Of a stretch of DNA of 32,000 nucleotides, positions 15,075 through 29,578 are shown one piece after another. Numbering within the stretch: position 1 is the stretch's first letter; every line of letters starts with the position of its first letter. The position numbers were made by a program, and so were the translations under genes. A model generated the notes under the pieces. The model was not told the DNA's origin. It worked only from the letters and a program-made list of their open reading frames with translations, and made no database searches. The stretch is from NCBI RefSeq assembly GCF_005221305.1, contig NZ_CP039887.1, positions 1,218,905 through 1,250,904 of the forward strand, read 5' to 3'. Source of the DNA: Neisseria subflava (GTDB taxonomy: Bacteria; Pseudomonadota; Gammaproteobacteria; Burkholderiales; Neisseriaceae).

Positions 15075-15440
15075 ATGGCCGTCAATAAAATCGCCCGTAA
15101 AAGCAGCAAGTTCCGCGTTGTCTTTACCGTCCCCGATTTCTGTTGGCCGCCACCACCCGCTCCCCCTTCCGTTCCGCCCATTCCCTTCCCACTCTTTGCC
15201 GACCTCGGCGGTGCCCAAACCGTCGCCAAAGACGTACGCCTCAACCGCAAGCCTGCTTTTGTCTTTAAAGCCAGTAAGACGGACAAGACTTATGGCGATG
15301 AAATCGCCCTTCCGGGCCGTAAAGGGGTAAAGAGCCGCACCGCCACCAAACCGGCATGGCCTATGCGCCATTCTTCCTCGGTTAAAATCCGTAAACGCTA
15401 TATCGTGCGCACCGGCGATATGTTCCATATGAACGGCAAG
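15075..15440 (+). other. PAAR-like DUF4150 domain of rhs-1 (an identical copy lies at 19669-20034 in rhs-2)
   Basis: The segment FTVPDFCWPPPPAPPSVPPIPFPLFADLGGAQTVAKDVRLNRKP...YGDEIALPGRKGVKS...SSSVKIRKRYIVRTGDMFHMNG follows the DUF4150 pattern (PDxC.tP.....P.P.PN.a......t.V.i.g...GDE.G..GGv.S......a....gS..V...G....R..D....N). Confidence 0.8.
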
Positions 15441-17386
15441 TTCAGCAAAAGACTCCCCCCTAAAACCTGTCTGTCCTGTAAGGGTGCAGTGGGTGCCGGT
15501 CGGCCGGTGAATCCGATACACGGTTTGAAGTTTCTAACCGGTGAAACCGACTTTGCCTTTGAAGGCATTTTGCCGCTGGTATGGAGCCGCAGCTATTATT
15601 CCGACCAAGACGGTACCGGCTGGCTCGGCGAGGGTTGGAGCGTACCGGGCTGCCAACGCATCATCCGCGATGCGGCGGGATTGGCCTATATCGACGATCA
15701 AGGCCGTTTGTTCCCTTTGCCGGAAGTGGATGAAGATGATGAAGAACCGGTATTGTTCGAAAGCGAACAGATTTGGTTCAGTAAAAACCCGGACGGCCAT
15801 TATGTCATTGCGTCGCTGGACGGTTCGATAGCGTTGCGTTTTGCGCCTTTGGTGGTCGCTGAAGACGGTTCGGACGAAGATTCCACCCTCTTCCCTTTGG
15901 TCGCGGTAGAAGACGCCAACGGCAACCATCAGCGTTTCATTTATCATCCGCTGACCGGTCTGCCGCAATACATTATTGACGGCAACGGACGGGTATTCTC
16001 GCTGAACTTTGGCAATGTAGCCGATGAGCAATCGCCTAAAATGCGGCTGCTGTCGGTATCGCTGTTGGAGGGTTTGCCTGCCTTTGGCGAAGCGGTCCGG
16101 GTCGGCAGCCCGCTGGTTCGCTATGAATACAACGGCAGTGGTGACTTAGTCCGCGTTATCGGCCGCGACGGCAAGGTCAAACGCAGCTTCGGCTATAAGA
16201 ACAATCTGATGGTGTCGCACACCGATGCAGCCGGATTGGTATCGGAATACGAATACGACCATTACACCCCGACCGGCAAAGTGTTACGCAACCGGACTTC
16301 CTTGGGCGAGGAATGGCGTTTTACCTATCACGAAGGTTATACCGAGGTAACCGACGTATTGGGCCGTACCGAGCAATACCATTACGACTACAACAACGAG
16401 TTGACCAAACGGGTGTTTGCCGACGGCAGCACCAACCTGATGGAACGCGACGACTTGGGCCGTCTGCTCAGCCATACCGATGCAATGGGGCGCGTTACCC
16501 GTTATCAGTACAGCAACGAGGGCCAGGTGGAAAGCATTACCCGTCCGGACGGCGTCATCCTGCATTTCGACTATGACGACAACTACCGTCTGATCCGTAA
16601 AAGCGATGCCGAAAGCCGTTATCACGGCTATACCTACGACGAAGCGGGCAACCTGCTGACCCATACCGACCCGCTGAAACACATCACCCGTTTCGAATAT
16701 GCCGGCAACGGTCTGTTGCTGTCGGTGACCGATCCGAACGGCAGCAGTACCGCCTACCACTATAACGAAAACCATCAGCCCGACCGGATTACCGACTGCT
16801 CGGGTTACGAAACCAAACTCTCTTACACTCCCGAAGGACAGTTGGCGCGTATTACCGATGCGCTGGGACAGCATACCGAATACCACTACGACGCCAATCA
16901 AAACCTTACCCTTGCCCTCTATCCCGACGGCAGCAAAGAGACCTTCGGCTACGATGCCGCAGGTCGTTTAAAAACCCATACCGACGGCGAAGGCCATACC
17001 ACTTCCTACGAATACGGCCAAGACGGTCTGCCGACCCGGCGCACCAATGCGCTGGGCCATACCTTCGGCTACCACTACGACAAAGCCCGCCGCCTGGTCG
17101 GCCTCACCAATGAAAACGGTGCGCGCTACCGCTTTGCCTACGACGTCCTCGACCGATTGATTGCCGAAAGCGGCTTCGACCATAAACTGACCGGCTACCG
17201 CTATAATGCCGGTAACGAACTAATTGAACAGCGCGAATACGGCGATGATGCCACCCTTGCCGCCAAACTGATGGCGCAACTGGGCGGGCAACCCGTTGCT
17301 AAAAAAGATGCCGCCCCGCTTTCAGACGGCCTCGACAGCCAAACCCCGCTGCGGATTACCGAGTTCAAACGAGATGTATTGGGACG
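15075..17386 (+). repeat. Direct repeat copy 1 (2312 bp), apparently 100 percent identical to 19669-21980
   Basis: The first 770 codons of rhs-1 and rhs-2 are identical. Antisense ORF translations in the track are also identical (15534-16031 = 20128-20625; 16284-16901 = 20878-21495; 16968-17183 = 21562-21777). The first mismatch I see is at 17387 versus 21981. The offset is 4594 bp. Confidence 0.9.
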
Positions 17387-29246: not shown

Positions 29247-29290
29247 AAAGCCAGAAAGAGAAGATGGTGCTGGAATAGAGGCAAGCCCTA

Positions 29291-29578
29291 ATGGGTCAAC
29301 CTATCTTTCCCAAAAAATTGGAGCCTAATTCACAAAACGACCCTCATATACCCGACAACCACCTTAAAGAATACAACGGCAGCAGCTATTACTACGACAG
29401 TTTCAGCAACCTGATCCACCGCAAACTGGCAAACGGCGAAGTACAAAACTACTTCTACGATTTGCATGACCAACTGGTTACGGTGAAGATCTTCAAAGAA
29501 GACGGCACGAAAGAAACTTGGACGTACAGCTACGACACCTTGGGCAGAAGAATAGGCAAAGGCCGTCTGAACAGCTAA
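29291..29578 (+). pseudogene. rhs: Short diverged rhs core remnant 5 (95 codons)
   Basis: The segment PDNHLKEYNGSSYYYDSFSNLIHRKLANGEVQNYFYDLHDQLVTVKIFKEDGTKETWTYSYDTLGRRIGKGRLN aligns to TDNRLKTYNGNSYYYDHFGNLIHRELADGEVQNYFYDLHDQLVKAEIFKKDG.KETW.Y.YDALGRRIGKGRLK of the other copies. It stops 2 codons after the in-frame DUS (29562-29571). Confidence 0.8.

Follow-up and report, generated by a model that had tools for sequence, protein, structure and literature searches.

The question raised by this locus is why a row of headless rhs fragments should stand behind two complete toxin genes. The stretch analysed, a window of 32,000 nucleotides from Neisseria subflava (contig NZ_CP039887.1), carries genes of a type VI secretion system (T6SS), two complete Rhs effector genes (rhs1 and rhs2, called armed here) and a tail of four rhs-derived pieces. 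An earlier interpretation, made from the letters of this DNA and referred to below as the sequence-only reading, had seen in the tail a reservoir of at least four orphan 3' cassettes from which the armed genes could be given new toxins. The answer favoured here, with a probability of about 0.8, is that the region is a polymorphic Rhs effector locus of the Neisseria T6SS-B, shaped by C-terminal displacement and by gene conversion between cores. The earlier interpretation is partly supported: the mechanism of exchange is supported, and the reservoir is thin because a single cassette is intact and differs considerably from the armed genes.

Exchange between armed genes and orphan pieces

The armed genes lie in tandem on the forward strand. 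rhs1 (15075..19220) encodes a protein of 1381 amino acids and rhs2 (19669..24006) one of 1445 amino acids. According to Pfam and NCBIfam profiles, both proteins possess a Tox-PAAR-like domain (PF13665, at residues 15-122 in each), DUF6531, RHS repeats and an RHS repeat-associated core; the RHS profiles matched are PF05593 (E 1e-69 and 2e-70), PF03527, TIGR01643 and TIGR03696. The cores end with the motifs DPIGL...DTLGW in rhs1 and DPIGL...DPLGL in rhs2. These domains, together with the linkage to the secretion genes described below, agree with the earlier claim that two complete Rhs effectors stand directly behind vgrG and a DUF2169 gene. The pairwise alignment of rhs segments that had been proposed as a check was carried out, and the blocks of identity were mapped. 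Positions 15073-17386 of rhs1 and 19667-21980 of rhs2 are exactly identical over 2314 bp, within a block of 99% identity overall by self-BLAST, and past a dimorphic indel the two genes drop to about 87% identity.

Evidence for exchange inside the window comes from the comparison of both armed genes with the second piece of the tail, orphan 2 (27092..28807, forward strand). Two tracts are exactly identical between rhs1 and orphan 2: one of 212 bp (18009-18220 and 28100-28311), in which rhs2 differs at 21 sites, and one of 179 bp (17289-17467 and 27380-27558), in which rhs2 differs at 10 sites. A run of 21 sites shared by rhs1 and orphan 2 was reached in none of 20000 permutations. The opposite pattern, in which rhs1 agrees with rhs2 and orphan 2 is different, also forms a run of 16 sites (p = 0.00015). 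These runs directly support the view that gene conversion tracts have been laid down between rhs1 and orphan 2. The identity of rhs paralogues is 96-99% inside a genome versus 88-89% across genomes, and since paralogues are more alike within than between genomes, they evidently evolve in concert.

A comparison of strains shows that a tip which is armed in one can belong to an orphan in another. A metagenome scan with tip 3, which is carried by the first orphan piece of the window (orphan 1), returned six loci, among them a metagenome contig designated L086 (other loci are likewise cited by L numbers). In L086, tip 3 (100% amino acid identity), the pair of Correia-like elements described below and the immunity gene imm3 (100%) are found on an Rhs gene with core residues 237-1255, and the contig is collinear with positions 24851-28808 of the window from its base 1958 onward. 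Tip 3 is also found on orphans beginning at core residue 804 in L078, L081, L082 and L088. Tip 1 with its immunity gene imm1 is armed in the window, in L092 and in L097; elsewhere this pair belongs to a short orphan with core residues 1180-1255 and a truncated tip (L004, L008, L028, L040, L051, L078 and L082), and in L017 to an orphan starting at residue 636. L092 (OX336253.1, a large chromosome record) possesses the same flanks and the same rhs1-imm1 as the window, followed by a different second Rhs gene and a different tail. Such variants support the view that pieces have been swapped by recombination, both inside the locus and with other oral bacteria. The sequence-only reading had proposed exchange between orphans and armed genes through the conserved core, and this proposal is borne out by the rhs1/orphan 2 tracts, the concerted paralogues, the L086 variant and the orphaned copies of tip 1.

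The dimorphic indel deserves mention in its own right. It is in frame and lies at 22680-22783 in rhs2 and at 18086-18105 in rhs1; by it, SDNNSPT is swapped for 35 amino acids (…PSPVGEGRGEG…) encoded by palindrome-rich DNA. In 15 other loci the exact 35-mer stands at this position of Rhs, in armed and orphan copies alike. The block of 99% identity between rhs1 and rhs2 stops exactly at the indel, and orphans starting near residue 1005 begin just past it.

Toxin tips, immunity genes and the orphan tail

Tip 1 of rhs1 (18831-19217, forward strand) contains eight cysteines and, read off the sequence in this order, the motifs NWCGPDWTGG, ACRQHDICY and CMVRCDD. Phospholipases A2 are defined by a calcium loop of the form W/Y-C-G-x-G, a catalytic motif C-x-x-H-D-x-C-Y and a downstream helix with C-x-C-D; the three motifs of tip 1 are those that we take to be the calcium loop, the His-Asp centre and the third-helix Asp of the secreted enzymes. 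Pfam matches point the same way below their cut-offs: PF08398 scores 18.0 bits (cut-off 23.9; E 0.0037) and PF00068 13.7 bits (cut-off 32.1; E 0.089). Chains of phospholipases A2 in the PDB are matched weakly (E 0.18-2.4), and a homologue search gave six short fragments. Tip 1 is a putative phospholipase A2-like toxin of the Nte1 effector class.

Tip 2 of rhs2 (23509-24003, forward strand) is rich in glycine (17%) and contains six cysteines. Its relatives are few: a single cluster in a set of 5.8 billion proteins and, in 1.84 billion representatives, five hits, of which one is another Rhs C-terminus. Pfam gave no match for tip 2 at E up to 10, and matches to PDB sequences were confined to the DPxGL linker. 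Tip 3 of orphan 1 (25981-26376, forward strand) is basic; two relatives were found in the homologue search, and there was no Pfam match at E up to 10 and no PDB sequence match. NCBIfam profiles matched none of the tips or immunity proteins. By these searches, tips 2 and 3 are very rare families without named or solved relatives. The sequence-only reading, which could name no family for any tip, stands for these two and falls for tip 1 with its phospholipase motifs. As small families paired with putative envelope immunity proteins, tips 2 and 3 are candidates for new periplasm- or membrane-acting toxins.

Each tip is followed by a putative immunity gene on the forward strand. imm1 (19225..19527) begins 4 nt past the stop codon of rhs1 and encodes 100 amino acids with two transmembrane-like segments by hydropathy; in other loci it is always tied to tip 1. 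imm2 (24020..24676) encodes 218 amino acids with an N-terminal signal peptide and a lipobox-like IVSC, and is 100% conserved beside tip 2 in eight contigs. imm3 (26601..26906) starts 222 bp past tip 3 and encodes 101 amino acids, again with two transmembrane-like segments by hydropathy; it is 100% conserved beside tip 3 in many contigs. Because all three immunity proteins look envelope-located, all three toxins presumably act on the envelope. A further copy of imm3 (100% amino acid identity) is found at 659-964 of L085, at the edge of a contig of GC 0.52-0.61, with no adjoining Rhs core. Its neighbours there are unrelated genes, for an ABC transporter, Band_7 and Glyco_hydro_6.

The four rhs-derived pieces of the tail were located by self-BLAST and tblastn within a few bases of where the sequence-only reading had placed them. 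Orphan 1 (24853..26379, forward strand, by tblastn) comprises core residues 890-1255 and the intact tip 3, with no PAAR head. Its homology to rhs begins at 24851/24853 with a TAA directly upstream; it has no ATG, and its first possible start is a weak TTG at 24997, 48 codons in. The stop codon of tip 3 lies inside the first Correia-like element, so that only the last few residues of the tip are altered. Sequences 73-97% identical to the leader of orphan 1 (24735-24845) lie 5' of orphans starting at residue 804 or 805 in at least 15 loci of several species, where they overlap the first Rhs codons. Since these leaders match, orphan 1 is a degraded orphan of the 805 type that has lost about 80 further codons. 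Its identity to the armed genes is 82-84%, with exact runs of at most 77 bp.

Orphan 2 comprises core residues 643-1214 and is 93% identical to rhs1. A TAA lies three codons upstream, there is no ATG, and the first in-frame start is a weak TTG 17 codons in; the piece is cut before DPxGL and is without tip or immunity gene. Intact orphans of the residue-643 type carry three different tips in L081, L083 and L086, one of them with an HExxH motif. The leader of orphan 2 (26907-27091) recurs ahead of residue-643 orphans and is partly homologous to the spacer ahead of second full-length rhs genes. The third piece (28994..29249, reverse strand, by tblastn at 44-59% identity) is an inverted, frameshifted scrap of the Rhs core end, residues ~1142-1216, conserved at the array end in L035, L062 and L092. 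Orphan 4 (29291..29581, forward strand) is an open reading frame (ORF) of 95 amino acids with an ATG start and no tip; its homology spans 29312-29581 and core residues ~1008-1085. Across Neisseria species, few junction types are observed (residues 643, 755, 805, 1005 and 1180), each with conserved leaders, and the tips behind them vary.

The tail is an array of 5'-truncated rhs fragments that lie downstream of the armed genes in the same orientation, with the exceptions of the inverted scrap and of orphan 4 with its ATG. A tip of its own and a cognate immunity gene are not found in each orphan; one piece of the four, orphan 1 with tip 3 and imm3, retains both. The picture of a reservoir of at least four cassettes was accordingly overstated, orphan 2 being cut by an insertion sequence (IS) and the last two pieces being scraps. 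The pieces were said to lack a start codon, which is true of orphans 1 and 2 and wrong for the ORF at 29291-29578. They were also said to be nearly identical to the armed core; orphan 2 comes close to this, as rhs1 and rhs2 do to each other at 99%, and orphan 1 does not.

The units are separated by spacers of mosaic structure, in which DNA uptake sequences (DUS) are prominent. The spacer between imm1 and rhs2 (19528..19668, forward strand) contains a palindrome like those of repetitive extragenic palindromic (REP) elements and a single DUS-like site, and its last 39 bp match positions 15036-15074 upstream of rhs1. The module behind imm2 (24743..24804) consists of a 23-nt palindromic element (24743-24765) and a perfect inverted DUS pair (24773-24804; -20.6 kcal/mol, z -8.4). 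In a second module (26932..27063), the same palindromic element (26932-26954) is followed by an inverted DUS pair with a T-run (27025-27063; -28 kcal/mol, z -6.9), and this arrangement looks like a terminator. DUS hairpins had been claimed between all units; they are found at these two junctions, and the imm1-rhs2 spacer has none. The small palindromic modules of the earlier account are real, as the 23-nt element, present at 24743 and again at 26932, and the tandem Correia-like pair show. In total, the window contains 17 copies of the 10-nt DUS, mostly of the AG-DUS form, and 8 AG-mucDUS variants; the sites lie both within the Rhs core and in the spacers. A role of transformation in cassette exchange, suggested earlier, is plausible because DUS occur in core and spacers and because Neisseria cassettes are found in other naturally competent taxa.

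Tip 3 and imm3 are separated by two tandem Correia-like elements (26361..26571), with units at 26361-26468 and 26465-26571 of ~107 bp each that share a TATA. Correia repeat-enclosed elements are about 105-155 bp long, possess terminal inverted repeats and are inserted at TA or TATA. Positions 26361-26387 agree, with 2 mismatches, with the 27-nt sequence that we take to be the consensus of the Correia terminal repeat (chance expectation 0), and 26361-26571 was classed on this basis. A candidate promoter, a consensus match only, lies at 26558-26587 at the end of the second element and faces imm3.

Behind orphan 2 is the remnant of an IS5-family (IS1106-like) element (28802..28981, reverse strand), consisting of the outer end and the first 38 transposase codons. 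A 335-aa DDE_Tnp_1/DUF772 ORF in L023, another Neisseria Rhs array, begins with the same 38 codons at 100% identity. The remnant is joined to orphan 2 at core residue 1214 on the opposite strand. An IS-associated inversion or deletion is suggested at the boundary of orphan 2 and the scrap. The junction itself (28795-28815) falls within transposase codons 36-39, at a microhomology ATACCTGAA held in common with the reverse complement of Rhs TTCAGGTAT, and the inverted scrap has its 3' end directly against the outer end of the IS (28982-28994). The upstream stops, the lack of ATG codons, the terminator-like DUS hairpins ahead of the orphans and the IS remnant all point to orphans that are silent and partly decayed.

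In the reading favoured here, the vgrG-DUF2169 operon would give rise to the two PAAR-like Rhs proteins, and the T6SS would deliver them mounted on the VgrG spike. Each Rhs protein would encapsulate its C-terminal toxin, to be released at the DPxGL motifs, and in sister cells the small envelope protein encoded directly 3' would neutralise it. For loading, delivery, release and neutralisation we infer this course from domain content and from the literature on N. cinerea Nte1. Recombination in the conserved, GC-rich core may install a new unit of core end, tip and immunity gene, by which the old 3' end would be pushed downstream as a headless, untranslated orphan. One displaced end, tip 3 with imm3, would still be intact and the rest eroded by an IS element, deletions and an inversion. 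As the copies appear to keep exchanging, the intact orphan would be a possible donor for toxin switching and a carrier of its immunity gene. The second role is the more immediate one: imm3 would protect against neighbours firing the tip 3 toxin, of the type of L086, and is probably the most immediate function of the tail.

Other explanations of the tail are all rated below this one. It is possible, if rather doubtful, that the orphans are one-way fossils, kept through the linked imm3 or for want of time for their deletion. Three of the four pieces are tipless, an IS truncation and an inversion are present, and orphan 1 is shorter at its 5' end than orphans of residue 805; moreover, the Correia elements part tip 3 from imm3 with the promoter-like site facing the immunity gene, and the existence of strains with tip 3 on a long Rhs gene would select for the retention of imm3. 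Such a graveyard would not account for the exact tracts of rhs1 and orphan 2, which mean that orphan sequence flows to or from the armed genes. Nor would a neutral fossil be expected to keep its frame intact and to match the copy on a long Rhs gene at 100% identity, as tip 3 does. That the headless pieces are independently expressed cargo effectors, with internal starts and loading on Hcp or VgrG in the manner of Nte3-5, is unlikely. The stops directly upstream, the lack of ATG and the weak TTG codons as first starts speak against it, as do the terminator-like hairpins ahead of orphans 1 and 2. Published Rhs structures imply that a shell lacking its N-terminal half or more would hardly close round a toxin, and orphan 2 carries no toxin at all. 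On the other side, PAAR-less Rhs proteins were treated as possible cargo by Custodio et al. and are toxic in E. coli, many Snodgrassella orphans are transcribed, and recurrent 5' junction types with conserved leaders across species could hint at a function.

The arrangement of silent 3' cassettes behind expressed genes, flanked by DUS and conserved spacer modules in a transformable and recombination-proficient genus, also recalls programmed switching at high frequency, in which silent cassettes would be copied routinely into an expression site as with pilE and pilS. This is very improbable here: a single usable silent cassette is present, at 82-84% identity to the armed genes, and independent assemblies and contigs (L070-L072, L077 and L079) show no difference in the tail, which indicates stability. 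No recombination-initiating element is evident, although no search was aimed at one, such as a G4 motif. An artefact of assembly, with repeats collapsed or expanded, is hardly credible. The 3-kb repeat of 99% identity between rhs1 and rhs2 is prone to misassembly from short reads, and the L071 contig starts inside rhs2; yet a 2.2-Mb chromosome record (L070) contains the region in full, every junction of the tail is seen again in independent assemblies, and tandem full-length rhs genes behind vgrG and the DUF2169 gene are found in L001, L002 and L092 too. The danger of an artefact foreseen by the sequence-only reading is dispelled by the 100% match in CP133462.1, which is L070, and by the recurrence of the tail junctions in GCA_963396255.1 and several metagenome contigs.

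Several points weigh against displacement and gene conversion as the full account. The direction of events, displacement or re-arming, is not readable from the sequences. The Rhs gene of L086 is cut by the start of its contig at residue 237, and its PAAR head is unseen. Recombination with orphan 1 would be inefficient because of its 82-84% identity and short exact runs, and a simple crossover that joined an armed gene to orphan 1 would remove imm1, imm2 or both and should be counter-selected. The assignment of tip 1 is drawn from motifs and sub-threshold profile scores, and AlphaFold models of tips 1 and 2 are of low confidence (pLDDT 45 and 47), two long helices alone being visible in tip 1.

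Chromosomal setting and related cassettes in other oral genera

The array follows a T6SS cluster on the same strand. The core genes (115..11437, forward strand, by Pfam and composition) are tssF (3' part), tssG, tssH/clpV, tssJ, tssK, tssL with an OmpA domain, and tssM. They are followed by the gene for the spike protein vgrG (11568..13841, forward strand; Phage_GPD, Phage_base_V and Gp5_trimer_C in Pfam) and that for a DUF2169 adaptor or chaperone (13858..14994, forward strand; PF09937, E 3.9e-67), which lies directly 5' of the rhs pair. The features of T6SS-B are present: the tssL ORF (6586-7848) combines DotU with a C-terminal OmpA peptidoglycan-binding domain by Pfam, tssM is followed by vgrG and the DUF2169 gene, and PAAR-like rhs genes lie downstream. 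The right border of the array is formed by tRNA-Glu(ttc) and tRNA-Arg(acg) (29680..29843, reverse strand), beyond which lies a gene for an RNase_T-type exonuclease (29959-31350). In L072 (5824-8731) and L080 (2821-12462), a Mu-like prophage with GemA, Mor, baseplate and tail genes is found directly behind the Rhs tail in place of the right end of the window.

GC content is 0.33-0.44 in the T6SS structural genes, ~0.55 in the Rhs cores, ~0.33-0.36 in tips and immunity genes, and 0.47-0.52 in the downstream chromosomal genes. The contrast of a high-GC core with a low-GC tip and immunity gene is the classic composition pattern of Rhs loci. Since the GC of the T6SS genes (1-14000) is well below that of the Rhs cores (15000-23000) and of the downstream genes, the composition suggests that the entire T6SS cluster is a horizontally acquired island. 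Of the species representatives, those closest at the DNA level (~94%) are N. perflava CCUG 17915 and Neisseria sp. HMSC078H04, and at the protein level the region is 100% identical to part of the L070 record. The array is chromosomal, as L070 and L092 show. An origin from a plasmid such as that of N. cinerea 346T was considered and rejected: megablast of positions 11500-19700 against PLSDB gave nothing, and tblastn with rhs1 gave distant Rhs genes only, mostly of less than 60% identity.

The search for relatives of rhs1 also led outside Neisseria, to Streptococcus infantis, S. timonensis, S. oralis, S. australis, S. xiaochunlingii and related streptococci, Veillonella parvula and Rothia aeria. 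The arrays concerned are L030 (Rothia aeria, AP017895), L031, L060 and L061 (S. infantis), L045, L055 and L066 (S. timonensis), L057 and L068 (S. oralis), and L052 and L053 (Veillonella), with L048, L050, L065 and L067 as further loci. They contain up to 11 Rhs fragments, mostly core-end pieces, together with toxin tips and small ORFs. In the Streptococcus arrays, which belong to the mitis group, every fragment lies on one strand, and the arrays abut ffh or ftsY. The fragments have a GC of ~0.5 inside loci of GC 0.33-0.36 (0.43 in Rothia). Each locus contains 4-20 Neisseria DUS 10-mers, inverted pairs included, versus ~0.05 per locus expected by chance. Measured against few Neisseria arrays, 11-40% of each locus matches them at 81-99% identity; segments of 0.7-1.2 kb reach 95-99% and mostly contain intact ORFs of nearly equal length on both sides. 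For example, an ORF of 228 amino acids directly 3' of the first armed Rhs gene in Neisseria sp. CP9 has an intact, 98% identical copy in S. oralis SK141. The Rothia array is a 17-kb AT-rich island both flanks of which are host DNA of 0.55-0.58 GC. At the one visible array edge, that of L058, no recombinase or full-length toxin was found, and Streptococcus chromosomal genes alone were present. Contamination or chimeric assembly is unlikely, as the arrays lie within Mb-scale or complete chromosomes of many independent assemblies and the Rothia island has host flanks.

A smaller shared module concerns tip 1. Positions 18763-19561 of the window, which span the final 22 codons of the core, all of tip 1 and imm1, correspond at 99.4-99.6% DNA identity to an orphan islet of 800 bp. 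The contigs that bear it (L093-L096, L098, L099 and L041) contain 3-13 uptake signal sequences (USS) of the Haemophilus type and Pasteurellaceae-like genes. The islet usually lies between an acid phosphatase gene and a gene of the metallo-beta-lactamase fold, with a DUS hairpin just downstream in some contigs.

Polyimmunity loci have been described from the oral flora, S. oralis among its members (Zhang et al. 2012, PMC3482391). Like these and the acquired interbacterial defence islands of Bacteroidales, the foreign arrays combine immunity genes with toxin remnants in hosts without a matching delivery system; unlike them, they contain Neisseria DUS, and some of their segments match Neisseria Rhs arrays at 95-99.6% identity. 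A literature search retrieved general polyimmunity loci only and no report in which oral ones consist of Neisseria Rhs cassettes with DUS. That a T6SS delivers an Rhs effector into Gram-positive cells has been reported in work cited in PMC13375697. Tentatively, and with somewhat less than even odds, the foreign arrays could be acquired defence islands against the Neisseria T6SS, built by natural transformation with the core end as homology anchor and extending to Gram-positive bacteria. Haemophilus, Veillonella and even streptococci would then defend themselves against the Neisseria T6SS with stolen immunity genes, and the rhs-CT/immunity cassettes of Neisseria may be a shared currency of the human oral microbiome.

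Comparison with known systems

The architecture of the locus is already described for Neisseria T6SS-B, for Snodgrassella and for enteric bacteria. In Salmonella Typhimurium LT2, which possesses a main rhs gene and one orphan, core recombination that fuses the orphan tip to the main gene has been shown experimentally (Koskiniemi et al. 2014, PMC3967940). The window shares with LT2 the order of a complete T6SS rhs gene, its immunity gene and, downstream, a tip/immunity orphan that is headless and has no signals for translation or export. The window differs from LT2 in having two armed genes and four orphan pieces, one of them intact, and spacers with DUS hairpins and Correia elements; re-arming would here be deduced from natural variants such as L086. 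The Rhs loci of Snodgrassella alvi, like those of enteric bacteria, have been explained by the same C-terminal displacement and gene conversion (Steele et al. 2017, PMC5727410). S. alvi and the organism of the window both belong to the family Neisseriaceae and share this architecture, but the S. alvi arrays are much larger, with many orphans transcribed and intact, whereas the tail in the window is short and mostly decayed. Within the genus, the maf loci possess mafB-CT orphan cassettes (Jamet et al. 2015, PMC4287609). They are reported to resemble the window as polymorphic toxins with silent alternative C-terminal cassettes and immunity genes downstream, and differ in having MafB instead of Rhs as scaffold and another secretion route.

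The closest experimental counterpart is N. cinerea 346T, whose effector Nte1 combines PAAR, Rhs and PLA2_like domains; its toxicity is confined to the periplasm, and Nti1 neutralises it (Custodio et al. 2021, PMC8263058). For Nte5 of the same strain, in which the Rhs region is short, orphan status was proposed (PMC8263058). In both organisms Rhs effectors stand behind a T6SS cluster that includes vgrG and a DUF2169 gene; the N. cinerea locus is on a plasmid, whereas that of the window is chromosomal and lies beside tRNA genes. Tip 1 is likened to Nte1 by published architecture and motifs, and none of the published Nte domains corresponds to tip 2 or tip 3.

The T6SS-B of N. subflava ATCC 49275 and its relatives is characterized by a TssL with an OmpA domain and by vgrG and a DUF2169 gene after tssM (Calder and Snyder 2023, PMC10210955). 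Its downstream rhs gene has a DUF4150/PAAR-like N-terminus, and the authors noted the resemblance to polymorphic toxin loci (PMC10210955). It is defined also by impE between tssE and tssD and by rhs upstream of tssA (PMC10210955), in a part of the cluster that lies outside the window. Beyond that account, the orphans, their junction types, the conversion tracts and the switching of tips between armed and orphan state are dissected here. This adds a worked example for commensal Neisseria, a genus whose T6SS effectors are barely characterised. With a natural strain in which the silent cassette of the window is carried by a long Rhs gene, toxin switching in the human nasopharyngeal flora becomes testable.

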